Assembly (NCBI GenBank): GCA_018656065.1
Contig: JABHZY010000025.1
Location: 1 to 47,868 of the forward strand
DNA: 47,868 nucleotides
Direction: 5' to 3'
DNA from: Candidatus Komeilibacteria bacterium
Lineage (GTDB): Bacteria > Patescibacteriota > Patescibacteriia > UBA1558 > GWA2-36-10
Shown: piece after piece, positions 24,529 through 38,984 of the stretch
Position numbering within the stretch: position 1 is the first letter of the stretch
Layout of the letters: every line of letters starts with the position of its first letter
The notes under the pieces: model-generated
Seen by the model: only the letters and a program-made list of their open reading frames with translations
Database searches by the model: none
What the model was told of the DNA's origin: nothing
Position numbers and translations under genes: made by a program

Positions 24529-25604
24529 TGAGAGTAATTAATATTAGTTTAGATAATAAAATATTAGATAAAGATTCTTCAGTTGCTAAACGGACGATGT
24601 CTTTTGCTGGTAAGTTGGAAAATTTATTAGTTATTTGTGTAGGTAAAAATGGCCAGATTAATTTAGCAGATAATATACTTGTAAAAGGCATTAGAAAATC
24701 TAATAAAATATTAAGTTTATTTGCTTTACGTAAATTTTTACATCAAGAGTTAGTTAAAAATAAATATGATTTAATAACTATTCAAGATGCTTATTGGCTA
24801 GCAAAATTAGGCGTTTGTGTGGCTAATAAATTTGGTATTAAATCAGAGATTCAAGTGCATGGTTTTGAAAAATTAAATTTTATTACTAAAGTTTTGGCTA
24901 AGCAAAATTTTGCTAAAGCGGATAGAATTAGAACAGTTAGCTTGAGATTAAAAAATCAGTTGATAAAAGATTTTGCTGTAGATGAACAAAAAATATATGT
25001 AGTACCGATTGCTGTAGATAAAGATAAAATTTTGTCAGAGGAAATATCAGTAAATTTAAAAGAAAAATATTCTAATGACTTTATTTTTCTGACAGTGGCT
25101 AGGTTAGTAGCTGTAAAAAATATTGCTATGCAAATCAAAGCATTGGCAGAATTAGAAAATAAAAATACGAAACTTATAATAGTTGGTGATGGTTCGGAGA
25201 AAGAGAACTTGAAAAGTCTAGCTAAAGATTTAGATTTATTAGATAGAGTAATCTTCGAGGGCTGGCTAGATGACTTGAATGCTTATTATAAATCAGCGGA
25301 CTGTTTATTACTTAGTTCAGACAGTGAAGGCTATGGAGCAGTTGTGGCTGAAGCAGTTTTATTAGGTTTACCGATAATAATGACAGACGTTGGAGTAGCC
25401 GGTGAATTAGTAGAGGATAATGTAAATGGATTGATAGTGCCAGTAGACAATCAAGAAAAATTTATTCAAGCTATGAATAGCTTAGTAGTAGATAATGATT
25501 TGAAACAAAAATTTTCTACCAATAGCTTGCAGTTTAGAAATAAGATATTGGATAAAGATGAATTATTAAATAAAACGATTGATAATTGGAAATCTATTGT
25601 ATGA
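24528..25604 (+). CDS. Glycosyltransferase family 4
   Basis: 358 aa. LLSSDSEGYGAVVAEAVLLGLPIIMTDVGVAGELVEDNVNGLIV. TAATG overlap with the upstream gene. Confidence 0.8.
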   Translation: MRVINISLDNKILDKDSSVAKRTMSFAGKLENLLVICVGKNGQINLADNILVKGIRKSNKILSLFALRKFLHQELVKNKYDLITIQDAYWLAKLGVCVANKFGIKSEIQVHGFEKLNFITKVLAKQNFAKADRIRTVSLRLKNQLIKDFAVDEQKIYVVPIAVDKDKILSEEISVNLKEKYSNDFIFLTVARLVAVKNIAMQIKALAELENKNTKLIIVGDGSEKENLKSLAKDLDLLDRVIFEGWLDDLNAYYKSADCLLLSSDSEGYGAVVAEAVLLGLPIIMTDVGVAGELVEDNVNGLIVPVDNQEKFIQAMNSLVVDNDLKQKFSTNSLQFRNKILDKDELLNKTIDNWKSIV

Positions 25605-26674
25605 GTGTTGAAAACAGAAAAATTTGTTATGTTTTACCAAAGTTTGATCTGAATATAGATACACACTATTTTTATTTATATGATTTTATAAATGAAGTAG
25701 CTAAAGATTTAGATTTAGTTTTGTTAATAGAAAAAAGTAATTCAGATATTAGTTTTTTTAAAAATGTTTCTAAAGTTTATGTCCAAAGATTTTCTTGGAC
25801 ACCGTTGAGGATAATAGAGAATTTTATTTTATTGTTAATTATTAGAGCTCAAAATTATAAAAATTTTTATATTCACTATTCTTATATCTCAGCTGGCAAT
25901 GCTAGTTTAATAGCTAAATTATCAGGGGCTAGGACATTTTATTGGAGTTGTGGTATGATGTGGCTTTTTGGCAAAGATAGGGCCTTAGGATTAGTATTAA
26001 AGTTAATTAACCATCTGGTAACAGGCGTGAAAGCTTTAAAATCAGGTTATGTTGAACATTATGGTATTTCAGTAGATAAAATAAAGATAATGCCAAATTG
26101 GATAGATTTAAATAGATTTAATAATATAGATACAGATAATATTTTAGAAAAATATAAATTAAACAAAGATGATAAATATATCTTTTTTGTACATAGATTA
26201 GCCAAACGAAAAGGAGCGCATTATATAGCCAAATTAGCTAAAACTAACCCGGAATTTAAATTTTTAATAGCCGGTGATGGTCCATATAAAAAACAATTAG
26301 AACAAGAGATTAAAGATTTGGATAATGTAATTTTATTAGGTAAAATTCCTAATAAAGATATTCCAGGCTTAATGAGAATTTCTAAATTATTTTTTATGCC
26401 CTCAGAAGAAGAAGGTTTTCCTAGGGTGCTATTAGAATCAATGGCAGCTGGACTTCCTTACGTGGCTTTTGATATTGGCGGAGTTAGAGAGATTAGCACT
26501 AAAGAACAGCAGGAATATATTGTAGATGATGTTGCAAGTATGAATATAGGTATTAAAGAGATTCTAAGTAACCAGGATATATATAATAAGTTAAAACAAG
26601 TTAATCTAGAACACGTTAAACAATTTGATATCAAAGTAGTAAAGAATAAATTTATAGAATTAATATATGGATAG
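25601..26674 (+). CDS. Glycosyltransferase family 4
   Basis: PSEEEGFPRVLLESMAAGLPYVAFDIGGVREI. ATG 25601, which makes an ATGA overlap with the upstream stop, is preferred over the TTG at 25586 in the track. Confidence 0.75.
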   Translation: MSVENRKICYVLPKFDLNIDTHYFYLYDFINEVAKDLDLVLLIEKSNSDISFFKNVSKVYVQRFSWTPLRIIENFILLLIIRAQNYKNFYIHYSYISAGNASLIAKLSGARTFYWSCGMMWLFGKDRALGLVLKLINHLVTGVKALKSGYVEHYGISVDKIKIMPNWIDLNRFNNIDTDNILEKYKLNKDDKYIFFVHRLAKRKGAHYIAKLAKTNPEFKFLIAGDGPYKKQLEQEIKDLDNVILLGKIPNKDIPGLMRISKLFFMPSEEEGFPRVLLESMAAGLPYVAFDIGGVREISTKEQQEYIVDDVASMNIGIKEILSNQDIYNKLKQVNLEHVKQFDIKVVKNKFIELIYG

Positions 26675-27317
26675 TGTAGCAAAAATTTATGCCAAACATA
26701 ATTTAGAAATGAGAGGTAGGGGCTTTCTTATTTTAGGTAATGAAAGAAAACAGTTATTAAAAAAATATATTCAAGGCAATAATCTAAAAATTTGTGACCT
26801 TGGTTCTCGAGATGGAGCTTTGAGTAAAGAATATATAAAAGGTAATGAATTGTGGGTAGTTGATTTTGATAAAGCAGCTTTGGATGCTTTAGAGAATAAA
26901 GATAAAATTAAGACAGTTTGTCAGGATCTAAATGCTGAAGTTTGGGATTTACCAGAGGACTATTTTGACATAGTTATTTTTTCAGAAGTTTTAGAACATT
27001 TATATTATCCAGCCAGAGTGCTCAAAAAGATTTCAAAAATATTAAAACAAGATTCAGGGACATTAGTGGGCACTATCCCAAATGCTTTTAGTCTAAAAAA
27101 TAGATTTAGATTATTATTTGCCAAGAAAAAAGCCACTACTCTGGAAGATCCAACTCACATTAACCATTTTTCTTATTCAGAATTAGAGAGTATATTAAAA
27201 AATAATTTTAAGAATATAGAAATAAATCCTCTTATACAAAAGAAATATAAATTTTTATCAAAAATTTCGCCGTCTTTATTTTCTTCTATGTTATTTTTTA
27301 AAGCGAGAAATAAATAA
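26667..27317 (+). CDS. Class I SAM-dependent methyltransferase
   Basis: 216 aa. Motif I KICDLGSRDGALS and post-motif VIFSEVLEHLYYP. Confidence 0.7.
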   Translation: MDSVAKIYAKHNLEMRGRGFLILGNERKQLLKKYIQGNNLKICDLGSRDGALSKEYIKGNELWVVDFDKAALDALENKDKIKTVCQDLNAEVWDLPEDYFDIVIFSEVLEHLYYPARVLKKISKILKQDSGTLVGTIPNAFSLKNRFRLLFAKKKATTLEDPTHINHFSYSELESILKNNFKNIEINPLIQKKYKFLSKISPSLFSSMLFFKARNK

Positions 27318-27322
27318 ACATT

Positions 27323-27940
27323 ATGCATTCACTTTTCAGAAAATTAACCTACGATAAACTATCCAAGTTAAAGCTGGATGGGCAGATTTTAGATTTGGGT
27401 GGAATAAGAAAGGCTGATTACCACAAATTAATTAAAGGTCAGCATAATATAAAAGTGGTTAATATAGATGGTGACGCTAAGGCAGATTTTTCCTTTGATT
27501 TAGAAAATAAATTTCCTATAGAGAATGACTCATATAATAATATAATATGTCTTAATGTCTTAGAGCATATTTTTGATTATCAAAATGTTGTGGATGAGAG
27601 TTTTAGGATACTTAAATCAGGTGGAGAAATAATAAATGTTACACCATTTTTATTAAATATTCATGAGTGTCCAAACGATTATTGGCGTTATACCAAGCAA
27701 TCTTTACATAAAATATTTGCCAAAGCTGGCTTTAAAGAAATTGAAATTACAGAAATAGGCACTGGTTTGTTTGGAGCTGTCTATCAATTAAAGTTTGGTT
27801 TTTTCAAAATTGATATAATAAGAAAAATATTCATGACAGTTTATGTTTTTATGGATAGAGTATTAAAATTGGTCAGGCCTAATAGTTTTATTACAGCTAG
27901 GCATATGCCTTTGGGGTTTTTTGTTAGAGCGAAAAAATAG
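27323..27940 (+). CDS. Class I SAM-dependent methyltransferase
   Basis: 205 aa. ILDLGGIRKADY, IICLNVLEHIFD and LKSGGEIINVTP. Confidence 0.65.
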   Translation: MHSLFRKLTYDKLSKLKLDGQILDLGGIRKADYHKLIKGQHNIKVVNIDGDAKADFSFDLENKFPIENDSYNNIICLNVLEHIFDYQNVVDESFRILKSGGEIINVTPFLLNIHECPNDYWRYTKQSLHKIFAKAGFKEIEITEIGTGLFGAVYQLKFGFFKIDIIRKIFMTVYVFMDRVLKLVRPNSFITARHMPLGFFVRAKK

Positions 27941-27971: not shown

Positions 27972-28000
27972 TTGATTTTTTTTAAATAATAGACTATAAT
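27972..28000 (+). promoter_or_regulatory. Sigma-70-type promoter for the sugar-nucleotide modification operon
   Basis: TTGATT (27972-27977)-N17-TATAAT (27995-28000), 33 nt upstream of ATG 28033. Confidence 0.5.
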
Positions 28001-28032
28001 CAGGTAGTTAAATAATCAGAATATACTAAATT

Positions 28033-29112
28033 ATGACATCAAAAAACAAGCCAAAATACGAGCCAAAATCAATATTAATAACTGGTGGGGCTGGTTTTAT
28101 TGCTAGTAATGTTTTACGCTATTTTTGGAAGCAATATCCAAATACACATTTTCATGTTTTAGATGCCTTGACTTATGCTGGGGACATGAAAAATATTGAT
28201 GACGCAATTCATTCTAGTGACAGGTTTACTTTCTGGTATGGCGATATCAGAAATGAACGTTTAGTTGATAAAATTATATCTCAAAGTGAAATAGTATTAC
28301 ATTTAGCCGCTGAAACTCATGTTACCCGGTCTATTTATGATGATATTAATTTTTTTGAAACAGATGTTATTGGTACTCAGGTTATAGCTAATGCAGTCTT
28401 ACGTCATAAAAAAACAGTTAAACGTTTTATACATATTTCAACCAGTGAAGTTTATGGTACAGCTATGACAGAAGACATGGATGAAAGCCATCCTTTGCAG
28501 CCTCAGAGTCCCTACGCTGCTGCCAAGACTGGTGCAGACAGACTAGTTTATTCTTATTATCATACTCACAAAATTCCAGCAGTTATTGTTAGGCCATTTA
28601 ATGCTTTTGGTCCTAATCAGCATTTAGAAAAACTTATTCCTAGATTTATCACTAGTGTTTTACTAAAAGAGCCAATGACTATTCATGGTGATGGTAGTAG
28701 TTCACGTGACTTTGTTCACGTCATTGATATAGCACGTGCTTTGGATATGATAATTCAAGCGTCAGCCAAGGATGTGGAAGGTGAAGTATTTAATGTAGGA
28801 ACTAATAAAGTTACATCTGTTTTGGAGATTGCTCAATTAATTGAAAAATTAATGTTAGATAATGGCAAACAGAAAATGGAGTTTAGTGAATATACCTTAA
28901 ATGTTGATGATAGGCCTGGGCAGGTGAATAAACATCTTTGTAATTATAATAAAATAAAAAAATGTTTAGGTTGGGAACCCACAATTACCTTAGAAGGTGG
29001 TATGAAAGATATTATTGATTGGTATGTAAATAATAGAGATTGGTGGGAATCAAAGGTATGGATGCGACAAGTTCCAATTGTAACAGAAACAGGTAAAGTA
29101 GAATTTCATTAG
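28033..29112 (+). CDS. rfbB: NDP-glucose 4,6-dehydratase (dTDP-glucose 4,6-dehydratase-like)
   Basis: 359 aa. ILITGGAGFIASN, DALTYAGDMKNI, HISTSEVYG, SPYAAAKTGADRL (YxxxK) and DRPGQ follow the RmlB pattern. Nucleotide specificity cannot be read from the sequence. Confidence 0.7.
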   Translation: MTSKNKPKYEPKSILITGGAGFIASNVLRYFWKQYPNTHFHVLDALTYAGDMKNIDDAIHSSDRFTFWYGDIRNERLVDKIISQSEIVLHLAAETHVTRSIYDDINFFETDVIGTQVIANAVLRHKKTVKRFIHISTSEVYGTAMTEDMDESHPLQPQSPYAAAKTGADRLVYSYYHTHKIPAVIVRPFNAFGPNQHLEKLIPRFITSVLLKEPMTIHGDGSSSRDFVHVIDIARALDMIIQASAKDVEGEVFNVGTNKVTSVLEIAQLIEKLMLDNGKQKMEFSEYTLNVDDRPGQVNKHLCNYNKIKKCLGWEPTITLEGGMKDIIDWYVNNRDWWESKVWMRQVPIVTETGKVEFH

Positions 29113-29118
29113 AGTAAA

Positions 29119-30039
29119 ATGATAAACAAATCATTAATTACAGGCGCAGGAGGTTTTATAGGTGCGAATTTAGCTCGCACACTACTTAAACGCGGCGATG
29201 AAGTATTTGCTTTAATCAGGCCGGGCGGTGATACTTGGCGTTTAGCTGAGATAGCTAACGATATAAAAATAATAGAAGTAGATATTGCAGATAAGGAAGT
29301 ACTGGAAAAGGCAGTAAAAGAAATTAAACCTGAATTCGTTTTTCATTTAGCACATTATGGTGGTAACAGGGGTCAGTCAGATTCTGAATTAATACATAAA
29401 GTTATTGTAGAAGGAACAGCTAATTTATTAGCTGTTTGTGCGCAAATTGATAGTATAAAATCTATAGTAAATGTTGGTAGTTCTTCAGAATATGGCGCCA
29501 AAACTGAGCCAATGCGAGAAAATATGTCAGTTGAGCCTAATACTGAATATGGTCAGGCTAAGGTTGAGGCAACCAAATTATCTAAAAAAACAGCAGTTAC
29601 AGTAAGGCCATTCTCTGTTTATGGTCCTTGGGAGTCTAAAGTGCGTTTAATTCCGGCAGTTATTATGGCTTGTTTAGAAAATAGAGCTCCACAATTAGCT
29701 AATCCAAAGACTGTTAGAGATTTTATATATATTGATGATGTTGTAGATGCTTTGATTACGGCATCTGAAAATTTTATGCCTGGTGAAGTTTTTAATCTAG
29801 GTAGTGGTCAGCAAACATCACTCAAAGAAATTGTTGATCTTATAGTTAAATTAACAGATGCTGATATCAAATTGGAGTGGAACGAAATAGCTGGTCAAAG
29901 TTTTGATACTAATACCTGGGTAGCCGACACCAAACATTCTAGTGAAAAATTAAATTGGCAAGCTAAATATTCATTGGAACAAGGCATTCAAGAGACCATT
30001 GATTGGTTTAAAGAGTATAAAGAATTATATGGCAGATAA
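29119..30039 (+). CDS. NAD(P)-dependent SDR, NDP-sugar epimerase/ketoreductase
   Basis: 306 aa. LITGAGGFIGANLARTLL, SSSEYG and YGQAKVEATKL (YxxxK). Confidence 0.65.
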   Translation: MINKSLITGAGGFIGANLARTLLKRGDEVFALIRPGGDTWRLAEIANDIKIIEVDIADKEVLEKAVKEIKPEFVFHLAHYGGNRGQSDSELIHKVIVEGTANLLAVCAQIDSIKSIVNVGSSSEYGAKTEPMRENMSVEPNTEYGQAKVEATKLSKKTAVTVRPFSVYGPWESKVRLIPAVIMACLENRAPQLANPKTVRDFIYIDDVVDALITASENFMPGEVFNLGSGQQTSLKEIVDLIVKLTDADIKLEWNEIAGQSFDTNTWVADTKHSSEKLNWQAKYSLEQGIQETIDWFKEYKELYGR

Positions 30040-30817
30040 ATATCAAGAATTAAAAAATAAAGCATTGGCAGCCCGTAGGACTGTCATAACTGAATCCAGT
30101 CGTAGTGGATCAGTACATATTGCTTCTTCATTATCAGAAATAGATTTACTAACTGCTTTATATTCTAAAATTTTACAAAAAAAAGATAAATTTATTCTAA
30201 GTAAGGGTCATGGCGCTTTAGGTTATTACGCAGTTTTGGCTGAGTATGGTTTTATTCCTCGTGAAGAATTAAATAAGTATGGTCAAGATGGTACTAAATT
30301 ATCTGTACATCCAGTTTATAAAACAGCGCCAGGCATTGAAGCTAGCACTGGTTCTCTAGGTCATGGTTTGCCAATGGCTCTAGGCTTAGCTCTAGCTGCT
30401 CGACAGGATAAAAATGATGGACACAGTTATGTTTTATTAAGTGATGGTGAATGTGATGAAGGTTCCACTTGGGAAGCAGCTATGTTAGCTGGTCATTTAA
30501 AGTTAGATAACTTAGTGGCTATTATTGATTATAATAAATTTCAGGCATTTGGAAAAACAAAAGACATTTTAGATTTAGAGCCCTTTGCAGATAAATGGCA
30601 AGCAGCTAAGTGGGCAGTCAAAGAAATTAATGGTCATAACTTTGAAGAAATAATCAATGCTTTAGAAAAATTGCCCTTAGAAAAAAATAAGCCAACCGTT
30701 TTCATTGCTCATACTGTAAAAGGTAAAGGAGTGCCATATATGGAAAATAAATTAGACTGGCATTATTTTAATGTTAAGGCAGAGGATTTAGATAAAACTT
30801 TAGAAGAATTATATTAA
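30029..30817 (+). CDS. Split transketolase, N-terminal (ThDP-binding) subunit
   Basis: SGSVHIASSLSEIDLL, SKGHGALGYYAVL, GSLGHGLPMALGLA and LLSDGECDEGSTWEA (the GDG-type ThDP motif). ATG 30029 is preferred over the TTG at 29999. Confidence 0.75.
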   Translation: MADKYQELKNKALAARRTVITESSRSGSVHIASSLSEIDLLTALYSKILQKKDKFILSKGHGALGYYAVLAEYGFIPREELNKYGQDGTKLSVHPVYKTAPGIEASTGSLGHGLPMALGLALAARQDKNDGHSYVLLSDGECDEGSTWEAAMLAGHLKLDNLVAIIDYNKFQAFGKTKDILDLEPFADKWQAAKWAVKEINGHNFEEIINALEKLPLEKNKPTVFIAHTVKGKGVPYMENKLDWHYFNVKAEDLDKTLEELY

Positions 30818-30820
30818 TAT

Positions 30821-31738
30821 ATGAGAATTGCTTTTGTAGAAACTATAACTAAATTAGCCATCAAAGATAAATCAGTTTGGCTACTTACTGGTGATCTTGG
30901 TTTTTCAGTTTTTGAAGACTTTGCTAATAAATTTCCTGATAGATATTTAAATGTCGGTGTGGCAGAACAAAATATGATGGGTATAGCTGCTGGATTAGCT
31001 ATGGCTGGTAAAAAAGTTTTTGTATATTCTATATCTACTTTTTCTTCTATGCGAGCTTTTGAACAAATTAGAAATGATATCTGCTATCAAAACTTGCCTG
31101 TTTGTATAATTGGGGGAGGTAGTACTTTTAGTTATAGTAGCTTTGGTTGTACTCACTTTGCTTTAGAAGATATAGGTATTTTAAGGATTTTACCTAATAT
31201 GACGGTAGTAAATGCTGGAGATCCTATGGAAGTTGAGGTCGCGCTTGATGATTATCATAAAAATCCACGACCTTTTTATCTACGTATAGCTAAAAGAGGT
31301 GAGCCAGTAGTTCATAAAAATAAAAAAGATATTAAAATTAATAAAGCTACTCAAGTTAAAGAGGGTGAAGATATAAGTATATTTGCTAGTGGCAAAGCTT
31401 TACAGTATGCGACAGAAGCAGTTGAAGAATTAAAAATACAAGGCATCAATGCTGAGTTATTAAGTTTTCATACTGTTAAACCACTTGATGAAGAGGCAAT
31501 CATTAAAAGTGCAAAGCAAACAAAAAATATTATAACCATTGAAGAGCATTTAATACATGGTGGTTTAGGAACGGCAGTATCAGAAGTTGTTGCTCAAAAT
31601 GCTTTAGCAACTAAATTAAAGTGTTTAGCTGTCGCCGATGAATTTCCAGCTGGAGTAGGTAGTGAACAATATATGCTTGATAGATATTCTTTAAATAAAG
31701 ATAGTATAATAGCCGAAGCTAAAAAAATGCTATCATGA
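30821..31738 (+). CDS. Split transketolase, C-terminal (pyrimidine-binding) subunit
   Basis: 305 aa. NVGVAEQNMMGIAAGLAMAGK, IGGGSTFSYSSFGCTHFALEDIGILRILPNM and IEEHLIHGGLG. Confidence 0.75.
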   Translation: MRIAFVETITKLAIKDKSVWLLTGDLGFSVFEDFANKFPDRYLNVGVAEQNMMGIAAGLAMAGKKVFVYSISTFSSMRAFEQIRNDICYQNLPVCIIGGGSTFSYSSFGCTHFALEDIGILRILPNMTVVNAGDPMEVEVALDDYHKNPRPFYLRIAKRGEPVVHKNKKDIKINKATQVKEGEDISIFASGKALQYATEAVEELKIQGINAELLSFHTVKPLDEEAIIKSAKQTKNIITIEEHLIHGGLGTAVSEVVAQNALATKLKCLAVADEFPAGVGSEQYMLDRYSLNKDSIIAEAKKMLS

Positions 31739-32901
31739 TTAAGATTGTTATCATTATTAATGAATTATTAGTTGGTGGAGCACAGAGAGTTGTGGTTGAT
31801 TTAGTAAATAATATTGATATTAATAAATTTGAAATAAATTTGATTTTATTAAAATCACAAAAAGCATTTTCATCAAATTTAAAGTGGCTTGATGAAGAGA
31901 TTGATAAGAATAAAATTAATTTTATTACAATAAGTGACCGAAGTAGATTTAGTTTTAGAGAATTTAAGAAACTACATAGCACTTTAAAAGAAATTAAGCC
32001 AGATATTGTACATACTTTTTTACCCTATGCCGGCATAGTTGGTAGAGTAGTTGCATTTTTAAGCGGTGTAAAAAATATAATAAGTACGCAATGTAATGTA
32101 CCAGTTGCTTATTCATTTAAAGTTTATTTGTTAGATAAGATTACTTTGCTTTTGGTAAAGTTATGGATTGCTCCAACCGAGGGTATTGAATATGAATATT
32201 CTGGTTCAATTGCAATTTATAATACTAAAGCTTATTTAGAAGGACGTAAGCATTTTACAATCAATTTTGCTATTGATACTGTAAAAATAAATAAAGCATT
32301 AGAAAATATTGATAGGCCGAAAAAAAGAAGAGAGTTAAATATTCCAGAAAATGTTAAAGTAGTAGCTATGACAGCTAGGTTACATACTTGGAAAGGTCAG
32401 GAAGATTTGATAGATGCTATGGCTAAATTAGATGCTAATATACATTTAGTTTTAATAGGTGATGGAGTAATGAAACAAAGCTTAGAAGCTCAAGTAAGGT
32501 CACTAGACATTGAAGGTCGAGTTCATTTCTTGGGAACACGTAGTGATGTATTTGAAATATTAGCTATTAGTGATATTTATGTGCAAGCACACAGAATAGA
32601 AAAAGATAAAGTTTGGGTTGGTAGAAATTCAGCTCAGACAGAAGCAGCTGCCATTGGTTTGCCGTCAATTTCTACAAATGTACCACTTATTGAAGAGTTT
32701 ATCCAAGATGGTGTAAATGGAAAAATTGTAGAAAGTAATAATCCAGAAATGATGGCCCAAGCAATTAAGTGGTTTTTAGATAATCCCGAAGAAACTAAGC
32801 AAATAGCTAAGAAATTACAAGTAGAAGCTACTAAAGGTTTTTCTATTGAAAGAGCAGTTAGCTTACACGAACAACTTTATGCAGATTTATATTCTAAATA
32901 A
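31735..32901 (+). CDS. Glycosyltransferase family 4
   Basis: 388 aa. IIINELLVGGAQRVVVDLVNN. The C-terminal AQTEAAAIGLPSISTNVPLIEEFIQDGVNGKIV. ATGA overlap with the upstream gene. Confidence 0.75.
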   Translation: MIKIVIIINELLVGGAQRVVVDLVNNIDINKFEINLILLKSQKAFSSNLKWLDEEIDKNKINFITISDRSRFSFREFKKLHSTLKEIKPDIVHTFLPYAGIVGRVVAFLSGVKNIISTQCNVPVAYSFKVYLLDKITLLLVKLWIAPTEGIEYEYSGSIAIYNTKAYLEGRKHFTINFAIDTVKINKALENIDRPKKRRELNIPENVKVVAMTARLHTWKGQEDLIDAMAKLDANIHLVLIGDGVMKQSLEAQVRSLDIEGRVHFLGTRSDVFEILAISDIYVQAHRIEKDKVWVGRNSAQTEAAAIGLPSISTNVPLIEEFIQDGVNGKIVESNNPEMMAQAIKWFLDNPEETKQIAKKLQVEATKGFSIERAVSLHEQLYADLYSK

Positions 32902-32924
32902 AATAATTAATAATATTAAATAAA

Positions 32925-34148
32925 ATGGCAGAAAATCATCCTTTTATACCTGGTGAAGATTGGGTTTGGTATAGCAGAGCAATCTATGGCCAAAAAGAAA
33001 TAGACTCAGTGCTAGAGTCTCTTAATTCTGATTGGTTAGTGCCAGGTGACTATAGTAAAAAATTTGAAGAGGCGGTAGCTGAGAAATTTGGGCAAGACTA
33101 TGGTTTGTTTGTAAACTCCGGTTCTTCAGCAAACACTTTAGCTTTGAGTATTTTTAATTTTAAGCCAGGCTCTGAAGTTATTACTCCAGCCTGTACTTTT
33201 GCTACTACAGTTAATCCATTATTGCAAGCGGGATTGATTCCAGTATTTATAGATGTAGAATTAGACACCTATCTTATAGATATAGATAAAATTGAAGGGG
33301 CTATTAGTGATAAAACAGTTGCTTTGATGATACCGCAGTTAGTAGGTAATATAGTTGATATGCCACGTTTACGCACTATCGCTGATAAACATAATTTAAT
33401 TTTAATAGAAGACAGCTGTGACACTGTTGGTGCTACGATAGATGAAGTGCCAACTGGTAAATATGCTGATGCAAGTACTACTAGTTTTTATGCTTCTCAT
33501 ATTATTACTGCGGCTGGCGGCGGCGGTATGGTTATGTTTAAGGATAAAGATAAAATTAAAACTGCTAAAGTTTTAAGAGACTGGGGTAGAGCTTTGCCAG
33601 AGCATGCCGATGAATCACCAGACAAACGTTTTGATTTTACTATAGATGGTAAACCTCATGATGGTAAATTTGTGTTTACTAATTTAGGTTGGAATTTTAA
33701 AGGTATAGATTTACAAGCGGCTTTTGGTTTAGCACAATTAAAACGTCTTCCTGGCTTTTCAGCTATTAGACAGAAAAATTTTGTTAGCCTAAATGAATTT
33801 TTTTCTAAATATCCAGATCATTTTATTTTACCAAGGCAGCTTGATAATGTTTCAACTAATTGGCTAGCTTACCCAGTTAACATTAAAAAAGATTCACCAA
33901 TTCAAAGAACAGATTTGATGCGTCATCTGGAAGAAAATAAGATTCAAACTCGAGTGTTATTTTCTGGCAATATATTAAAACATCCAGCCTATAAAGATAT
34001 TCCACACAGAGTGGAGGGTAGTTTAGAAAATTCTGATACTATAATGACTCAATGTATTTTAATTGGTTGTCATCATGGATTAAGACAAGAACATTTGGAT
34101 TATGTTATGAAAACATTGTCTGAGTTTTTAGATAAATATGCCAAATAA
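32925..34148 (+). CDS. DegT/DnrJ/EryC1-family PLP/PMP enzyme of the RfbH/E1 (NDP-4-keto-6-deoxyhexose 3-dehydrase) type
   Basis: 407 aa. VNSGSSAN, PGSEVITPACTFATTVNP, LIEDSCD and RDWGR are present. TSFYASHIIT has His where aminotransferases carry the Schiff-base Lys. KIQTRVLFSGN is also present. The segment after RDWGR (ALPEHADESPDKRF) has no Cys. Confidence 0.6.
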   Translation: MAENHPFIPGEDWVWYSRAIYGQKEIDSVLESLNSDWLVPGDYSKKFEEAVAEKFGQDYGLFVNSGSSANTLALSIFNFKPGSEVITPACTFATTVNPLLQAGLIPVFIDVELDTYLIDIDKIEGAISDKTVALMIPQLVGNIVDMPRLRTIADKHNLILIEDSCDTVGATIDEVPTGKYADASTTSFYASHIITAAGGGGMVMFKDKDKIKTAKVLRDWGRALPEHADESPDKRFDFTIDGKPHDGKFVFTNLGWNFKGIDLQAAFGLAQLKRLPGFSAIRQKNFVSLNEFFSKYPDHFILPRQLDNVSTNWLAYPVNIKKDSPIQRTDLMRHLEENKIQTRVLFSGNILKHPAYKDIPHRVEGSLENSDTIMTQCILIGCHHGLRQEHLDYVMKTLSEFLDKYAK

Positions 34149-35298
34149 GAAATTAGAAATCGGCATTGTTACACAATGCATAGATAATAGAAAAGCTATG
34201 GGCACCGCTTTGGTGGCCAGGCGTTTGGTGGAAAATTTAAAAGAATATAACAGTGAATTTAATTTTACTTTAATTCATCAACAAAAGGTTGATGACTCTA
34301 TTTATAAAGACACTAAACAATTATTTATTCCAAATATTAAGTTTCCAGTTGGTCAGGCTATTTTGAATGAGTCTATTTTTTGGCTAAAACAAAGGCTTTT
34401 CGGCAAGAAATTTGATATTGTACACTATCTACAGCCCAGAGTATGGCCATCATATATATTTACTAATAGTAAGTATATTGTGTGCACACCTCATGATGCG
34501 GGTATAATGCTTGATATTACTAAGGATACTCTAGCTTCTAAAGTATTTCGTTTTACCAACAAGTACTTACATCAACGTATGCATAAGCTAATGGTAGTTT
34601 CAGAATTTGCTAAACGTGAAGTTAGTAAATATTTTAAATATTCACTAGATAAAATATTTGTAGTATATAATGGCATTGATGCTAATTTTAAAGCTTCGGG
34701 CCAAGATAAAAATGAAATAAAAAAATATTTAAATAGTAAATATAAAATACCAGAAGAAAAAATTATATTATCAGTTGGTAGATTAGACCCTCATAAGAAT
34801 ATAATAAATTTAATTAAAGCCTTCAATAAAATATTAGATAAAAATCAGGATTTAAAATTAGTAATAGTGGGCGGTAAGCATATAGCAGATTATGATAAGA
34901 AGGTTTTAGATTTGGTAAGTAAATTAAATTTAGGTGATAAGGTTTTTATTTCCGGCTATATAGAAGAAGAAGATTTGCCAAAAGTATATGAAATATCCGA
35001 GTTATTAGTAAATGCCTCCTTGCATGAAGGTTTTGGTTTGCCATTACTAGAGGCTATGTCAACTGGTGTAGCAATTTGTTGTTCAGACAGCACAGCGCTA
35101 CCTGAGGTAGCTGGTGATGCAGCTCTAACCTTCAATCCTAATGATATAGACGATATGGCTAGTAAAATTAATCTTCTTATTAGTGATGATAATTTAAAAC
35201 AAAATTTAATAAGCAAAGGCTTAGAACGAATTAAGAATTTTAGTTGGGAGAAATCCACAGAAGAATTAGTTAAACAGTATAGAAAATTTTATGTTTAA
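34138..35298 (+). CDS. Glycosyltransferase family 4
   Basis: 386 aa. NASLHEGFGLPLLEAMSTGVAICCSDSTALPEVAGDAAL. Confidence 0.8.
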   Translation: MPNKKLEIGIVTQCIDNRKAMGTALVARRLVENLKEYNSEFNFTLIHQQKVDDSIYKDTKQLFIPNIKFPVGQAILNESIFWLKQRLFGKKFDIVHYLQPRVWPSYIFTNSKYIVCTPHDAGIMLDITKDTLASKVFRFTNKYLHQRMHKLMVVSEFAKREVSKYFKYSLDKIFVVYNGIDANFKASGQDKNEIKKYLNSKYKIPEEKIILSVGRLDPHKNIINLIKAFNKILDKNQDLKLVIVGGKHIADYDKKVLDLVSKLNLGDKVFISGYIEEEDLPKVYEISELLVNASLHEGFGLPLLEAMSTGVAICCSDSTALPEVAGDAALTFNPNDIDDMASKINLLISDDNLKQNLISKGLERIKNFSWEKSTEELVKQYRKFYV

Positions 35299-36484
35299 GG
35301 ACAAGACTTGTATATTATGTAAAAGTGATAATATTAAATCATTTTTTGATTTAGAGAATTCACCTCGGTCTATTTCTGGATTATTAAGTAAAAATAATTT
35401 AGATAAAGATAGTAAAATAAATATCCAGCTACACCAATGTCAAGATTGTAAGTTAGTTCAATTACCGGATAATGTTTTGACTCAGCAGGAAGATTTTTAT
35501 GAGGATTATCTAATGACTGTTACTCATTCCGAGTATATGATTGAGCATCAGAATCAACAGGCTAAATATTTTGTAGATAAGTTTAAGCTAAAAGACAAAG
35601 AAATATTAGAAGTTGGCAGTGGTGATGGTAATTTTTGTTCCGTGCTACAAAAATATGGTGTTAAAGCAACCGGCATAGAGCCTTCAGAAGTTTTTTATAA
35701 AGAAGCTGTAAAATTATTTCCAGATATAAAATTTGTTAAAGATTATTTAACTGCCAATAGTGATTTAGAAGTATCTAAGTATGATGGTTTTGTGTCTCGG
35801 CAGGTTTTTGAACATTTGGCTAATCCTAATGAAGTTTTGCAAGATGTAAAGAAATTTTTAAAACCAAATGCTGTGGGTATAATAGAGGTGCCTTCTTTTG
35901 AGTTTTCAAGGAAAAATAACCGTTTTTACGACATTTTTACTGATCATATAGTATATTATGCTAAACAAACTCTACAACGGTTATTGTCAGATAATGGTTT
36001 TGAAGTTGATGAGATTAGAGATGAGGCGGCTGGTGAATATATAGTGGCTTATTTTAGAAATGGTGATTATCAGGATATTTTAAATGAGGAATTTAAAAAT
36101 AAATATTTTGATACTAAAAAACAAGTTACTCAATTTTTTGAGGAGCATGAAGATAAAAAAGTTGGTATTTGGGGAGCTGGTGGCAAAGGTGTGGCTTTCT
36201 TGTCTCAATGTGGAGTAGATGCTAATGATTCAATGGTTTTATTTGACTCTGATGAACACAAACAAGATAAATACACGCCGGCTAGTCATTTTTTAATTGA
36301 AAAACCTGATACAGAAAAAATTAATAGTTGTGATTTAATAGTTATCACAGCCATGATGTATCATAAGCCGATTATTAGAAAATTAATTAATAATTATAAT
36401 TATCAAAATAAAATTGCCGTGGTAGCGCCGGTTATTCATATTTTAGATGAGCAAGCTATAAATGATATTGTCAAAGAAAAATAA
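35291..36484 (+). CDS. NDP-hexose C-methyltransferase (TylCIII/EvaC-like three-domain architecture)
   Basis: 397 aa. N-terminal zinc ribbon CILCKS...HQCQDCKLVQL, SAM motif ILEVGSGDGNF, and a C-terminal Rossmann-like VGIWGAGGKGVAFLSQCG...DSDEHKQDKYTP. This matches the Methyltransf_13/14 layout from memory. Confidence 0.7.
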   Translation: MFKDKTCILCKSDNIKSFFDLENSPRSISGLLSKNNLDKDSKINIQLHQCQDCKLVQLPDNVLTQQEDFYEDYLMTVTHSEYMIEHQNQQAKYFVDKFKLKDKEILEVGSGDGNFCSVLQKYGVKATGIEPSEVFYKEAVKLFPDIKFVKDYLTANSDLEVSKYDGFVSRQVFEHLANPNEVLQDVKKFLKPNAVGIIEVPSFEFSRKNNRFYDIFTDHIVYYAKQTLQRLLSDNGFEVDEIRDEAAGEYIVAYFRNGDYQDILNEEFKNKYFDTKKQVTQFFEEHEDKKVGIWGAGGKGVAFLSQCGVDANDSMVLFDSDEHKQDKYTPASHFLIEKPDTEKINSCDLIVITAMMYHKPIIRKLINNYNYQNKIAVVAPVIHILDEQAINDIVKEK

Positions 36485-37440
36485 TGTTAAATAATAATTG
36501 TCCATTATGTAAAGCGTCTAAAGAATTTAAATATTTAGAAGCTCATATTGATAATAATAAGGAATATAAGCTCTACGAATGTAAAGTATGTAGAGCTCAA
36601 TTTTGGTGGCCTTTAAAAAATCCTGGTGCTCAGTGGTATGAAAATGATGAACGCTATTCTGATAGAAATTTTGATCCGATATTAATTCCCAACTGGAATC
36701 ACAAAAAGATCATTTCTTTTTTAAAAAATAAAACAGGTAAAGTTTTAGATATTGGCTGTGGGGTTGGAACTTTTTTGAAACACGCTCAAGATAATAATTG
36801 GGATACTTATGGTCTTGATTTCGATAACGATGCCATTAAAGCAGCTCAGGAAACATTTAAATTAAAAAACTTAGAAGTTTGCGATTTACTGACATACCAT
36901 AATAAATACCCTGACAAAAAATTTGATTTAATAACTATTTTTGATGTATTCGAACATATTGATAATCATAATGAATTTATAAAAACTATTTTTGATATGC
37001 TTAGTCCGGGTGGGTATATTGCTATGAGTATGCCTTATCGTTATGGCGCAACATGGTTGAAGCCACATGATTTGCCACCACGACATTTAACTCGCTGGGA
37101 TAGGAGGTCATTGACTCAATATTTAGTCAAACAAAATTTTAAGGTTAAATATAAAAAAATATTAGATACCGGTTATAATTTTATATTAATGAAATTAAGA
37201 TTTCGCTATGGTAAGTTTTTTTCTTTTAATCTAGTTGGAAAAATTAAACAAAGTAAACGCAGTGATAATAAAATTGAGTTAAATAGTTCGTCTGAAAAAA
37301 TGATAACTAAAGTTCATATTTTAGCTAGAATAAAAGATTTAATTATTTTTGGTCTACCAGCTTTATTGATCTGGTTAGCTATGTTACCTTTTAAGAAGAG
37401 ATACGTGACATTATATGTAATTGCACAAAAGAATGAATAA
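36484..37440 (+). CDS. SAM-dependent methyltransferase with an N-terminal zinc ribbon and a C-terminal membrane anchor
   Basis: 318 aa. CPLCKAS...CKVCRAQFWWP, VLDIGCGVGTFL and ITIFDVFEHI. The C-terminal hydrophobic segment is LIIFGLPALLIWLAMLPF. Confidence 0.65.
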   Translation: MLNNNCPLCKASKEFKYLEAHIDNNKEYKLYECKVCRAQFWWPLKNPGAQWYENDERYSDRNFDPILIPNWNHKKIISFLKNKTGKVLDIGCGVGTFLKHAQDNNWDTYGLDFDNDAIKAAQETFKLKNLEVCDLLTYHNKYPDKKFDLITIFDVFEHIDNHNEFIKTIFDMLSPGGYIAMSMPYRYGATWLKPHDLPPRHLTRWDRRSLTQYLVKQNFKVKYKKILDTGYNFILMKLRFRYGKFFSFNLVGKIKQSKRSDNKIELNSSSEKMITKVHILARIKDLIIFGLPALLIWLAMLPFKKRYVTLYVIAQKNE

Positions 37441-38980
37441 ATTAAGAAATTTATTAACTACTAATTTTTTCCCACTAAGTTTGATTATATTAGGCTTGAT
37501 TATTAGGTTGGCTATGATAAATATGCCAAACTCTTGGTTACTAACTAATATTTTATCTGATGATGCTTTTTATTATTTTAAATTAGCTCAAAATATGGCA
37601 GCTGGCCTAGGATCTACTTTTGATGGCTGGCAAGAAACTAATGGCTACCATCCTCTGTGGCTTTGGTTGATTGTACCTATTTTTAAAAACAGTCAATCAA
37701 TTTGGCAACCTATTCAAATTACTTTAATATTATCAGCTATTATAAACGCCTTAACTAATTTAGGTTTATTGGCCATTATTTCAAAATATACTAAAAACAT
37801 TTGGATAAAAGTTTTAGGAATTTTTGTTTTTGTTTTTAATCCTTTTAATATATACGAATCTATTAATGGCTTGGAAACTGGTTTAGCTTTATTATTTTTA
37901 GTTTTATTTATACTAGTAGCTATAAATTTAAAAAATAAAAAAAGCTTTTGGTTATTTATATTATGGGGAATTATCGGCGCGGCAATGATGTTGGCTCGTT
38001 TAGATAATGTTTTTTATTATATAGCTGGATTAGCTTGGATATTTTTTACTCAAGACAAAAAATGGCAAAAAGTTTTTGTAGTAGGTTTGACCTCAACAGT
38101 ATTAGTTTTACCGTGGCTTATTTGGAGTAAATTAAAATTTGGTACAATACTCACTTCTTCTGGATCTGCTTCTACCATAGTTAATCATCATTTGATAGTT
38201 CAAGATCATGGACCAGGTTTAGCCCAGCAGATTAAAGCAGTTTTTTATTCTAGTTATTATGGTCTACAGATGGCTATTACTCAGACAGGTGCGCCAGAAT
38301 TATTTTTGATAGTTTTTGGCTTGGCTTTGGCTTGGCTGGTTGGACATAAGACTCTATCCAAGAAAGGTTATAAAAAATATTCTGTCGAAGTTTATTTATT
38401 TCTTGGCTTTATATTATTATTTTTATTAAATGCTAGTTTACGCTGGACTTATCGTACTTGGTATTTCATATCCATTAATATCTATTTGGTTTTAGCTATA
38501 GTTTGGTATTTACAAAAAATTAGACATTGGTGGCCAGCTAAAGCAAAATTTTATATTTTATTCGGTATTTTATTAGCTAGCTCATTTTATATTTCTTGGT
38601 CTAGGCATTTAGTTAATAGAGATGCTAGGCAAATTCAGATGCAACAAATATCTATTTGGGCTAATAATAATTTACCAGCTGATACAAAAATAGGAGTTTT
38701 TAATGCAGGTATTCAAGGATATTTTTCTAATAATAAAGTAGTTAACCTTGATGGTCTAGTAAATTTTCCAGGCTACCGCGCTTTAGCTGAATATAGACTG
38801 TGGGATTACGCACAAGAAGAGGGTATAGAATATTTGATTGATTTTGATGTATACTTAGATTATCGTTATAATGCTTTCTTTGGCATTGATGATTTAAAAT
38901 CCCGTTTAGAGTTAATTGAGCATGATTTATTAGAAGCTCAGGGTCCTAAAGATATAAAAGTTTATAAAATAAAAAAATAA
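37433..38980 (+). CDS. Large polytopic membrane protein, GT-C-fold glycosyltransferase candidate (ArnT/PMT/YfhO-like)
   Basis: About 515 aa with more than 10 hydrophobic segments. An acidic pair lies after TM1 (LSDDAFYYFKLAQNMAAGLG). The C-terminal soluble domain is about 120 aa. ATG 37433 is preferred over TTG 37421. The family call is inferred from topology and context only. Confidence 0.4.
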   Translation: MNKLRNLLTTNFFPLSLIILGLIIRLAMINMPNSWLLTNILSDDAFYYFKLAQNMAAGLGSTFDGWQETNGYHPLWLWLIVPIFKNSQSIWQPIQITLILSAIINALTNLGLLAIISKYTKNIWIKVLGIFVFVFNPFNIYESINGLETGLALLFLVLFILVAINLKNKKSFWLFILWGIIGAAMMLARLDNVFYYIAGLAWIFFTQDKKWQKVFVVGLTSTVLVLPWLIWSKLKFGTILTSSGSASTIVNHHLIVQDHGPGLAQQIKAVFYSSYYGLQMAITQTGAPELFLIVFGLALAWLVGHKTLSKKGYKKYSVEVYLFLGFILLFLLNASLRWTYRTWYFISINIYLVLAIVWYLQKIRHWWPAKAKFYILFGILLASSFYISWSRHLVNRDARQIQMQQISIWANNNLPADTKIGVFNAGIQGYFSNNKVVNLDGLVNFPGYRALAEYRLWDYAQEEGIEYLIDFDVYLDYRYNAFFGIDDLKSRLELIEHDLLEAQGPKDIKVYKIKK

Positions 38981-38984
38981 AAAT

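Follow-up and report, generated by a model that had tools for sequence, protein, structure and literature searches.

A split transketolase-like enzyme in a surface-glycan gene cluster of a candidate-phyla-radiation bacterium probably adds a two-carbon branch to a 3,6-dideoxy sugar

Why should a marine candidate-phyla-radiation (CPR) bacterium carry both halves of a transketolase (TK) among its genes for sugar-nucleotide tailoring? We addressed this question in a window of 47,868 nucleotides (the whole stretch of DNA analysed) from Candidatus Komeilibacteria bacterium (contig JABHZY010000025.1, assembly GCA_018656065.1). The original prediction, made from the sequence alone, was that a single promoter-defined operon encodes an RmlB-like 4,6-dehydratase, a short-chain dehydrogenase/reductase (SDR), a split TK-type ThDP enzyme, a DegT-family enzyme with His in place of Lys and a sugar C-methyltransferase, and that these make a deoxy, C-branched and C-methylated hexose, with the ThDP enzyme doing the job of YerE.

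Gene content of the locus

All five activities were found where they had been placed, so that the observation itself is confirmed (Table 1). However, two GT4 glycosyltransferase genes that had gone unmentioned lie between them, and the tightly packed, co-directional and mostly overlapping gene string is longer than had been described. The promoter proposed to define the operon does exist as a pattern matching at 10 of 12 positions, in the only sizeable gap (92 nt) of the string. Such matches nevertheless occur at chance frequency in this AT-rich region (115 found against 100 +/- 10 in shuffled sequences), so that, although it may be an internal promoter, neither this nor the operon boundary is established.

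Table 1. Features of the gene string, which runs from 23416 to 39347
Position	Strand	Feature
23416..27940	+	Upstream part of the string: three GT4 glycosyltransferases (23416-24528, 24528-25604, 25586-26674) and two small SAM methyltransferases (26667-27317, 27323-27940)
27972..28000	+	Promoter-like pattern TTGATT-17-TATAAT
28033..29112	+	RmlB-like NDP-hexose 4,6-dehydratase
29119..30039	+	Extended SDR, 306 aa; proposed side-chain ketoreductase and partner of the TK
29999..30817	+	Split TK-like enzyme, ThDP-binding N subunit (Transketolase_N); probable start at the ATG at 30029, database protein 262 aa
30821..31738	+	Split TK-like enzyme, Transket_pyr + Transketolase_C subunit
31735..32901	+	GT4 glycosyltransferase
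32925..34148	+	E1/RfbH-like PMP/PLP sugar 3-dehydratase (DegT family)
34138..35298	+	GT4 glycosyltransferase
35291..36484	+	Three-domain NDP-hexose C-methyltransferase of the TylC3/TcaB9 type (PF08421 + methyltransferase + PF08484)
36484..37440	+	SAM methyltransferase with an N-terminal Cys-rich segment, substrate unknown
37421..39347	+	519-aa membrane protein, possibly a GT-C-type transferase on weak evidence, and a 120-aa SMR/EamA-like membrane protein

The arrangement is not an assembly artefact. An independent sample (locus L001 among the related loci fetched for comparison) carries the whole syntenic block, including the upstream part of the string, at 65-85% protein identity. In addition, a DNA run covers the region at about 11x in a few overlapping or abutting contigs, one of which alone spans 28007-36497. 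In L001 and in two further related loci, L007 and L008, orthologs of the GT4 at 31735-32901 follow the TK C subunit, and the Cys-rich SAM methyltransferase travels with the block.

The 4,6-dehydratase scored 310 bits against TIGR01181 (cutoff 365), and its best PDB match was a dTDP-glucose 4,6-dehydratase at 225 bits. It keeps YxxxK, but has STSEVYG where RmlB has STDEVYG, i.e., Ser-Glu in place of Asp-Glu at the catalytic site; STSEVYG is conserved in six orthologs at 60-85% identity. In the fetched loci, 25 dehydratase homologs carry the RfbG-type motif SSDKAYG. The best PDB hits of the adjacent SDR, a CDP-tyvelose 2-epimerase and a GDP-6-deoxy-4-hexulose reductase, reached only about 90 bits.

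The DegT-family protein is much closer in sequence to the E1 structures (AscC/RfbH/DdhC; PDB 3BCX/3BB8; 315 bits) than to ColD (PDB 2GMS; 180 bits), although it scored below the NCBIfam RfbH cutoff (394.6 against 423). Its SFYASH aligns with SFYPAH of E1, so that His192 replaces the Schiff-base Lys. However, the E1 loop RDWGRDCYCAPGCDNTC reads RDWGRALPEHADESPDK here, so there are no [2Fe-2S] ligands, and no E3 is present; in cofactor logic the enzyme therefore resembles ColD. The C-methyltransferase shares with the TylC3/TcaB9/mycarose 3-C-methyltransferases (PDB 4RV9, its best match, and 3NDI) the three-domain architecture, a CxxC...CxxC zinc site and an aligned acid-His dyad, but at only 92 bits and about 25% identity. 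Its substrate would be a 3-deoxy sugar, and the position methylated cannot be read from sequence.

As had been noted, no nucleotidyltransferase was found in the window, either in Pfam scans of every non-overlapped ORF of at least 100 aa or in a tblastn search with an RfbF-like query. The Pfam scans also revealed no TPP_enzyme-type protein and no lipoyl/E2 or carrier-protein gene in the window. At the downstream end of the string, the evidence on the membrane proteins was limited to a weak NF047440 hit, a weak PMT_2 hit on the L001 ortholog, and EamA and SMR hits, with no PDB relative found by sequence. Together the two may form a route that delivers a lipid-linked sugar.

The transketolase-like pair and its neighbours

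It had been stated in advance that the interpretation would fall if the TK subunits grouped with housekeeping split transketolases, or if the DegT enzyme proved to be an ordinary aminotransferase. Neither was the case. The second point is answered by the replacement of the catalytic Lys by His. On the first, the TK belongs to a large non-canonical clade, spanning Patescibacteria, DPANN archaea, Omnitrophota, Planctomycetes, Chloroflexi, Firmicutes and Proteobacteria, in which the acceptor site is remodelled. In the window, the equivalents of Escherichia coli (Ec) TK residues His26, His66, His100 and His261, the Mg/ThDP Asp-Asn pair and the AEQN Glu are all present. Across the clade, His26, His66, His100, Asp155 and Asn185 are near-invariant, GDG reads SDG, and His261 is His in 58 of 75 members and Gln in 14. 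However, the C subunit has GGGSTFSYSSFGCTHF where canonical TK has ATHAGLTVGEDGASHQ, and the residues that read a sugar-phosphate acceptor are replaced (Ec His461 to Gly, Asp469 to Phe and Arg520 to Lys). Comparable replacements at these positions occur in all 87 TK C-subunit sequences from the fetched related loci, and in about 140 of the best 150 representatives clustered at 50% identity.

We next examined gene context in 44 related loci from other genomes with adequate flanks. Within 8 kb of the TK there was a His-type DegT 3-dehydratase in 28, an RfbF-like CDP-glucose pyrophosphorylase in 21, an extended SDR in 39 and a C-methyltransferase in 8. An extended SDR was the gene directly upstream of the TK N subunit in 27 of 65 loci. 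No pentose-phosphate enzyme appeared among the 25 commonest Pfam families of the neighbours.

Contiguous arrangements were also found. Two related loci, L041 and L065, have 4,6-dehydratase, E1-like enzyme, SDR, TK N and TK C in that order, and a complete Levyibacteriota chromosome has RfbF-RfbG-C-methyltransferase-SDR-TKN-TKC-E1. In Methylovirgula sp. HY1 the annotated order is rfbF-rfbG-SDR-rfbH-TKN-TKC, while Paenibacillus cellulosilyticus has an SDR::TK_N fusion beside rfbF-rfbG and a C-methyltransferase-like gene.

A proposed pathway and its alternatives

Taken with these amendments, the original interpretation is supported. The homologies, the residue replacements and the neighbourhood counts were read from the sequences, whereas all assignments of function, and every step of the pathway below, are inferred from sequence and gene context. 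With moderate confidence, we propose that this is the sugar-nucleotide tailoring module of a Wzx-type surface-glycan locus, in a marine Parcubacteria (Komeilibacteria-like) host, in which the TK/SDR pair replaces YerE/YerF and builds a 4-C-branched 3,6-dideoxyhexose. In this view, an NDP-glucose made by a nucleotidyltransferase encoded outside the window would be converted by the RmlB-like enzyme to NDP-4-keto-6-deoxyglucose. The E1-like enzyme would then remove the 3-OH, probably like ColD because it lacks Fe-S ligands and an E3 partner, with PMP regenerated from an amino-acid donor and the enamine hydrolysed, giving NDP-4-keto-3,6-dideoxyhexose. The C-methyltransferase would methylate a carbon next to the 4-keto group, C-3 or C-5. 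The split TK-like enzyme would transfer a two-carbon unit onto the C-4 carbonyl, most likely a glycolaldehyde/ketol unit because all the TK donor-side histidines are retained, to yield a tertiary alcohol carrying a hydroxyacetyl branch. The adjacent SDR would reduce the branch carbonyl, mirroring the YerE-then-YerF order of yersiniose synthesis, and the interleaved GT4 enzymes would install the sugar in the glycan. The order of the methylation, two-carbon transfer and reduction is not known.

There are important reservations. There is no biochemical, glycan-structure or transcript evidence (RNA runs from the same study gave only chance matches), and no TK has ever been shown to accept a ketone or a nucleotide sugar (PMC12247030). 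In 16 of the 44 well-flanked loci there is no His-type dehydratase nearby, so the acceptor cannot always be a 3-deoxy sugar. The adjacent SDR could instead be an ordinary 4-ketoreductase or an epimerase, and the donor substrate, the regiochemistry of methylation and the nucleotide have not been identified. The strong link to 3-dehydratases nevertheless points to the 4-keto-3,6-dideoxy intermediate.

Of the alternatives, the best surviving, although unlikely, is that the pathway logic is the same but the ThDP enzyme works decarboxylatively, like DXS or YerE, using pyruvate or another 2-oxo acid to install an acetyl or acyl branch rather than a hydroxyacetyl one; the product would be a yersiniose-type 4-C-(1-hydroxyethyl) sugar. 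The TK C subunit scored nearly as well against DXS models as against TK models (159 versus 194 bits), several DXS structures were among its PDB hits, the acceptor-side Asp that defines TK stereochemistry is lost, and YerE and ErwE use 2-oxo acids (PMC9306805, PMC12247030). However, the N subunit is clearly TK-like (244 bits, against 46 bits for DXS), and the pair keeps the equivalents of Ec His66, His100 and His473, which in TK bind the C1 hydroxyl of the donor.

More doubtful is that the enzyme acts on the nucleotide sugar at a position other than C-4, or on an aldehyde, either at a keto group made transiently by the SDR at C-2 or C-3, as proposed for miharamycin, or in chain extension to a higher-carbon sugar. 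The SDR is the most constant partner, its best PDB hit is an epimerase that works by transient oxidation, the 16 loci without a 3-dehydratase would be accommodated, and the miharamycin proposal places an oxidoreductase before the TK (PMC12247030). Against this, 4,6-dehydratases, which already supply a 4-keto group and remove the C-6 oxygen, are extremely common beside the TK.

It is very unlikely that the enzyme does not touch the sugar ring, and instead supplies a C2 acyl (glycolyl) substituent, as the NapB/NapD and QncN/QncL TK systems do, or feeds electrons from its ThDP-carbanion to the Fe-S cluster of E1 in place of the missing E3. No E3-like family (Fer2, FAD_binding_6 or NAD_binding_1) was among the frequent neighbours, even where E1 keeps its Cys loop, and many loci carry amino-sugar enzymes that could accept an acyl group. 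However, no lipoyl/E2 or carrier-protein family was among the frequent neighbours either, 14 of the 44 loci, including the window type, have a Cys-less dehydratase that could not receive electrons, and the TK is also present where no dehydratase is found nearby.

Least likely of all is a housekeeping pentose-phosphate TK that merely happens to sit in a glycan operon: CPR genomes are small, operons can be mixed and the rest of this genome was not searched for a canonical TK, but the acceptor residues are replaced, the clade is consistently embedded in NDP-sugar loci across phyla, and Methylovirgula and Paenibacillus carry it on plasmids inside rfb-type clusters.

Comparison with known branching systems

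One of the closest known systems is yersiniose A biosynthesis in Yersinia pseudotuberculosis, where 4,6-dehydratase and 3-dehydratase give the 4-keto-3,6-dideoxy intermediate, YerE branches CDP-4-keto-3,6-dideoxyglucose at the ketone, and the NAD(P)H reductase YerF then reduces the side chain (PMC9306805); there, too, the product sits in a cell-envelope glycan. However, YerE, to which ErwE and MMAR_2332 are similar, is a single chain of the decarboxylase (acetolactate-synthase-like) ThDP superfamily, whereas the enzyme described here belongs to the transketolase superfamily and is split in two genes. The nucleotide is also probably not CDP in the window type.

The idea that a TK might branch a keto sugar is not new. 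Split-gene TKs have been proposed, although not demonstrated in vitro, to transfer a ketol unit in forming the hydroxyacetyl branch of miharamycin and amipurimycin, and in 13 Streptomyces clusters (Krug et al. 2024, as cited in PMC12247030). Those are secondary-metabolite clusters of Streptomycetes, with whose enzymes sequences were not compared; the present cluster is a surface-glycan locus of a CPR bacterium. Finally, the canonical split TK of Carboxydothermus hydrogenoformans (PDB 6YAK/6YAJ), the best PDB hit of the pair, shares its two-gene architecture, ThDP and Mg site, and catalytic His and Glu residues, but not its remodelled acceptor and phosphate site or its glycan-biosynthesis gene context.

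Organization of the glycan locus

The genome has a low GC content (about 30%). A ribosomal-protein/SecY/Adk/Map block and a DUF5667 protein encoded in the window point to the candidate phyla radiation (CPR), the SecY being 86% identical to one from Candidatus Komeilibacteria, and the sequence occurs in marine and seawater metagenomes. A large part of the window is a single glycan locus, which encodes two Wzy_C+TPR proteins, nine GT4/GT2 glycosyltransferases, five methyltransferases, a Wzx flippase, a WbaP-like phosphoglycosyl transferase and several SDRs. The positions of these and other features are collected in the table.

Positions of features in the window and in related loci (L001, locus from a second sample; L041, L050 and L085, other fetched related loci)
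Feature	Location	Strand	Description
ORF without a Pfam match	window 13100-16639	+	1179 aa; in a stretch of higher GC (0.37-0.38 against about 0.29 around it)
Glycan locus	window 16.8 to 45.8 kb
Wzy_C-TPR genes	window 17494-22037	+	two tandem proteins of 733 and 777 aa, Wzy_C domain with C-terminal TPR repeats
Terminator-like hairpin	window 22033-22073		18 pairs, flanked by A and T runs
Co-directional gene string	window 23416-39347	+	genes separated by at most 23 nt or overlapping, except for one gap
Gap in the string	window 27941-32		92 nt; contains the TTGATT-17-TATAAT match
Span of the original prediction	window 28033-36484		in order: RmlB-like 4,6-dehydratase; 306-aa extended SDR; transketolase N subunit; transketolase Pyr/C subunit; GT4; DegT-family enzyme; second GT4; three-domain C-methyltransferase
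Membrane protein genes	window 37421-39347	+	519-aa GT-C-like protein and 120-aa SMR/EamA-like protein
Homolog of plant 'reversibly glycosylated polypeptide' / UDP-arabinopyranose mutase	window 39325-40419	-	PF03214, 50.8 bits; L001 ortholog 85% identical
Extended SDR	window 40424-41470
GT2	window 41475-42185	-	236 aa
Extended SDR	window 43423-44406
MCP-signal domain protein, followed by CheW	window 45938-47510	+	weak match, 36.6 bits, cutoff 34.6
Second TK_N/TK_C pair	L041 14733-16432
Second TK_N/TK_C pair	L050 about 16427-18200
Second TK_N/TK_C pair	L085 about 16640-18500
GIY-YIG-like ORF fragment	L001 2423-2575		50 aa, between the first two GT4 genes

The enzymes named in the original prediction were all found where it had placed them, although it did not mention the two GT4 genes that lie among them. 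It had also proposed that the genes form one operon with its own promoter. The promoter-like match does exist in the only sizeable gap of the gene string, but such matches occur at chance frequency in this AT-rich DNA (115 against 100 +/- 10), so the operon start is not established. RNA runs from the same study contained none of the sequence, and comparison with contigs gave only matches of about 20 nt, so that operon structure was not tested by transcript data. The block itself is real: the second sample carries it in the same order at 65-85% protein identity (L001), and a DNA run covers it at about 11x in a few overlapping or abutting contigs, one of which alone spans 28007-36497. L001 differs in its GIY-YIG-like ORF fragment, which is absent from the window.

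The ORF in a stretch of higher GC just upstream of the glycan locus may encode a surface protein. The two Wzy_C-TPR proteins, with an O-antigen ligase / O-oligosaccharyltransferase-type domain, are possible ligases or O-oligosaccharyltransferases in an organism with no outer membrane, and a similar gene follows the TK module in L002, another related locus. The strong bidirectional terminator-like hairpin lies between the convergent Wzy_C-TPR gene and the minus-strand GT4 gene. The UDP-arabinopyranose mutase homolog sits beside two extended SDRs, which suggests a separate UDP-pentose, possibly arabinofuranose, branch in the same glycan locus of this CPR bacterium. The MCP-signal and CheW genes are of chemotaxis type, in a small CPR genome.

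Sequence features of the individual enzymes

The 4,6-dehydratase matched dTDP-glucose 4,6-dehydratase structures at 195-225 bits, but its score against the TIGR01181 equivalog model (310 bits) was below the cutoff of 365. Of the catalytic residues of RmlB, the Tyr-x3-Lys motif is present (YAAAK) but the Asp-Glu pair is not, because the protein reads STSEVYG where every RmlB reference reads STDEVYG. This Ser-for-Asp change is conserved in its six orthologs.

That the DegT-family enzyme might prove to be an ordinary aminotransferase had been named in advance as grounds for rejecting the pathway, and this was not the case. The protein is far closer to the E1 3-dehydrase (E1/RfbH/AscC; 3BCX/3BB8, 315 bits) than to ColD (180 bits) or to any aminotransferase, and its 'SFYASH' aligns with 'SFYPAH' of E1, so that His192 replaces the Schiff-base lysine. 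However, the cysteine loop of E1, 'RDWGRDCYCAPGCDNTC', which supplies the ligands of the [2Fe-2S] cluster, is 'RDWGRALPEHADESPDK' here, and its score against NCBIfam NF011936 was 394.6 bits against a cutoff of 423. Neither a partner E3 reductase nor the CDP-glucose genes rfbF and rfbG were found in the window. It is therefore an E1-like protein that must work without the Fe-S/E3 electron relay. ColD, which also has His for Lys with no Fe-S cluster and no reductase partner, solves that problem by PLP/glutamate chemistry, although that the present enzyme does so is an inference. By sequence and context its assignment to the ColD type is left undecided, given the lower score against ColD and the fact that no GMD or GDP-mannose genes were identified.

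The C-methyltransferase has the zinc-binding N-terminal domain with four visible Cys residues, the SAM methyltransferase domain and the PF08484 C-terminal domain of the TylC3/TcaB9 type (33, 79.9 and 46.2 bits). It aligns over its full length with the mycarose 3-C-methyltransferase 4RV9 (only 92 bits) and over its N-terminal two-thirds with TcaB9; the position methylated (C-3 or C-5), which cannot be read from sequence, and the substrate were not assayed. No nucleotidyltransferase is present in the window, nor is any protein with the TPP_enzyme N/M/C architecture of the YerE-type carboligases (decarboxylase superfamily), the ThDP enzyme here being of the transketolase (TK) superfamily.

It had likewise been set as a test whether the TK subunits would fall with housekeeping split transketolases, and they did not. 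The domains are those of a split transketolase (EC 2.2.1.1), with Transketolase_N on one gene and Transket_pyr plus Transketolase_C on the adjacent one (139, 96.7 and 87.6 bits), and the best PDB hits were 6YAK and 6YAJ. Scores against the NCBIfam transketolase equivalog models were 244 and 194 bits against a cutoff of 488, although these models are full-length and therefore penalize half-size subunits. The N subunit keeps the residues equivalent to E. coli (Ec) TK His26, His66, His100 and His261 and the Mg/ThDP Asp and Asn, whereas the C subunit keeps the cofactor-activating Glu (Glu411, in AEQN). Residue numbering is from the TK literature, and the equivalences were read off alignments to 6YAK/6YAJ and human TK.

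By contrast, the sugar-phosphate site is only partly conserved. The equivalents of Arg358 and Ser385 are kept, but the stretch that reads 'ATHAGLTVGEDGASHQ' in Carboxydothermus hydrogenoformans TK and 'GSHCGVSIGEDGPSQ' in human TK is 'GGGSTFSYSSFGCTHF' here. As a result, the phosphate-binding His (Ec 461) is Gly and the Asp that hydrogen-bonds the C2-OH of the acceptor (Ec 469) is Phe, and Arg520 is Lys.

The same kind of replacement was found in every one of the 87 TK_C sequences from the fetched related loci, 80 of which came from the GTDB-species genome scan. It was also found in about 140 of the best 150 representatives, clustered at 50% identity, from an exhaustive search, with canonical 'H...G[EP]DG' sequences first appearing near the bottom of that list. 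The N-subunit residues are near-invariant in the clade, although GDG reads SDG in 69 of 83 sequences and Ec His261 is Gln in 14 of 75. This is therefore a large, old, catalytically competent-looking sister group of transketolase, in which the donor half-site is conserved and the acceptor half-site is rebuilt.

Gene context of the clade

The relatives come from Patescibacteria, DPANN archaea, Omnitrophota, Planctomycetes, Chloroflexi, Clostridia and others. The gene directly upstream of TK_N is an extended SDR in 27 of 65 loci, the other frequent neighbors being DegT, GT2, methyltransferases, sugar phosphotransferases and N-formyltransferases. No transaldolase, ribose-5-P isomerase (Rpi) or epimerase (Rpe) appeared among the 25 commonest neighbor families, nor did any E3-like or YerE-like family, and none of these three pentose-phosphate enzymes was found in the window. 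Of 67 DegT homologs in these loci, 44 carry His at the catalytic position, of which about 24 are classical E1 with the Cys loop and about 18 are the Cys-less form found in the window.

We also restricted the analysis to 44 loci with at least 6 kb upstream and 5 kb downstream. Within 8 kb, a His-type dehydratase was found in 28 of these, an RfbF-like glucose-1-phosphate cytidylyltransferase in 21, an extended SDR in 39 and a C-methyltransferase in 8. In the fetched loci, 25 dehydratase homologs carry the SSDKAYG signature of CDP-glucose 4,6-dehydratase.

Some arrangements were particularly clear. DH-E1L-SDR-TKN-TKC is contiguous in L041 and L065 (both related loci), and GT4-RfbF-RfbG-CMT-SDR-TKN-TKC-E1-GT2 occurs on a complete Levyibacteriota chromosome. 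On plasmid pHY1 of the cultured Methylovirgula sp. HY1, PGAP annotates rfbF-rfbG-oxidoreductase-rfbH-transketolase-transketolase C. Paenibacillus cellulosilyticus KACC 14175 has rfbF-rfbG, a C-methyltransferase-like gene, a 635-aa SDR::TK_N fusion, TK_C and a TylF-like O-methyltransferase, and the fusion is Rosetta-stone evidence that the SDR and the TK act together. A hit on a Streptomyces plasmid carried no annotation.

The window belongs to a subtype that differs from the CDP-type loci in its RmlB-like 'STSEVYG' dehydratase, its Cys-less E1-like enzyme and the absence of a nearby nucleotidyltransferase, so that the activating nucleotide was not identified. The subtype is shared by the related loci L001, L007, L008, L041 and L065, whereas L054 shares the dehydratase but keeps a classical E1.

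Proposed reaction and alternative readings

The recurring set of a 4,6-dehydratase, a 3-dehydratase, a ThDP enzyme and an adjacent reductase follows the logic of yersiniose biosynthesis, in which YerE adds a C2 unit to the C-4 ketone of CDP-4-keto-3,6-dideoxyglucose and YerF reduces the side chain (PMC9306805). Here, a TK-superfamily enzyme stands in place of the acetolactate-synthase-like YerE. Because the donor-side histidines that bind the ketol hydroxyl are retained, we favor transfer of a glycolaldehyde unit, giving a 4-C-hydroxyacetyl branch that the SDR would reduce to 4-C-(1,2-dihydroxyethyl), with the C-methyltransferase adding a methyl at C-3 or C-5. The Gly and Phe substitutions would make room for a 3,6-dideoxy pyranose in place of a polar aldose phosphate, and the retained Arg, Ser and Lys could bind the nucleotide diphosphate, although both points are inference. 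The original prediction of a deoxy, C-branched, methylated sugar made with a transketolase-type enzyme is thus supported, but at the level of a strong comparative-genomic prediction: what we observed directly are the genes, their active-site residues and their neighbors, whereas the reactions are inferred without any biochemistry. No TK is known to accept a ketone or a nucleotide sugar (PMC12247030), a third of the related loci have no 3-dehydratase nearby, and the SDR could be an ordinary 4-reductase or epimerase.

Of the alternatives, decarboxylative acetyl transfer of the DXS or YerE kind is unlikely but the best of them, and branching at a keto group made by the SDR, or aldehyde extension, is somewhat less likely still. 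A role off the sugar ring, as a glycolyl donor or as an electron donor replacing E3, is improbable, the latter because the Cys-less dehydratases have no cluster to reduce. A housekeeping TK is the least probable and was rejected on active-site and context evidence, although the same genomes were not searched as a whole for a second, canonical TK.

ThDP-dependent C-branching of 4-keto-3,6-dideoxyhexoses is known for YerE-like enzymes, and branching by PDH-E1-like enzymes is known in antibiotic sugars; experimentally, the ThDP-dependent formation of branched-chain deoxysugars, which are rare antigenic and bioactive building blocks, is known only for these two types. Split TKs have been proposed, but never demonstrated, for miharamycin/amipurimycin and for 13 Streptomyces clusters; the TKs listed in the in silico survey of Krug et al. 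2024 were not included in our sequence comparisons. A 2025 review states that the TK route is unproven and known only from Streptomyces clusters, and assigns TKs to specialized metabolites and YerE-like enzymes to cell-envelope glycans (PMC12247030). Apart from this review, literature searches linking transketolase to CDP-glucose or rfbH, to nucleotide-sugar branching or to Patescibacteria glycans found only an Actinoplanes EPS cluster (MT-TKN-TKC-DegT), noted without a function, whose deletion had no phenotype (PMC13390465). What is new here is that a large TK-like clade, with a diagnostic active-site signature, lies squarely in cell-envelope glycan loci of many phyla and is physically linked to the classical rfbF/G/H genes. 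This suggests that the TK route is common in such loci, including those of ultrasmall episymbiotic bacteria whose surface chemistry is essentially unknown, and two cultured organisms, P. cellulosilyticus and Methylovirgula sp. HY1, now offer a direct test. Because the gene products fail several criteria for the families after which they are usually named (TK, RfbH, RmlB), automatic annotations such as 'transketolase', 'RfbH' and 'dTDP-glucose 4,6-dehydratase' should be read as fold assignments, not functions.

A broader reading, which we consider about as likely as not, is that this widespread and so far uncharacterized clade of two-subunit enzymes, recognizable by Gly at the Ec His461 position and a non-acidic residue at the Asp469 position, are nucleotide-sugar C-branching enzymes. 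They would add a ketol unit to the C-4 ketone of NDP-4-keto-(3,)6-deoxyhexoses and work with a dedicated, sometimes fused, SDR. If so, they would be the first transketolases shown to use a ketone or a nucleotide-sugar acceptor, would be of interest to biocatalysis as makers of alpha-hydroxylated tertiary alcohols, and would imply a family of unknown 4-C-(dihydroxyethyl)-branched dideoxy sugars on the surfaces of CPR bacteria, DPANN archaea and other microbes.

Three genes of the window, encoding the GT-C-like membrane protein, the SMR/EamA-like protein and the 236-aa GT2, together resemble an ArnC/ArnEF/ArnT- or Gtr-type route that delivers a lipid-linked sugar outside the membrane. A PDB sequence search with the 519-aa protein returned nothing, and the only PDB relatives of the GT2 are polyprenyl-phosphate sugar synthases (DPMS 30 bits, ArnC 25 bits). 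GT2 is also the commonest gene just downstream of TK_C in relatives (16 of 67), and a GT2 with GtrA lies downstream of the TK pair in Methylovirgula, directly after it, and in Paenibacillus, two genes further on. Finally, the second TK_N/TK_C pairs in L041, L050 and L085 are more divergent (33-39% identity), and the two second-copy C subunits examined (L041, L085) also have a non-canonical acceptor motif, which suggests paralogous branching enzymes within one glycan locus.
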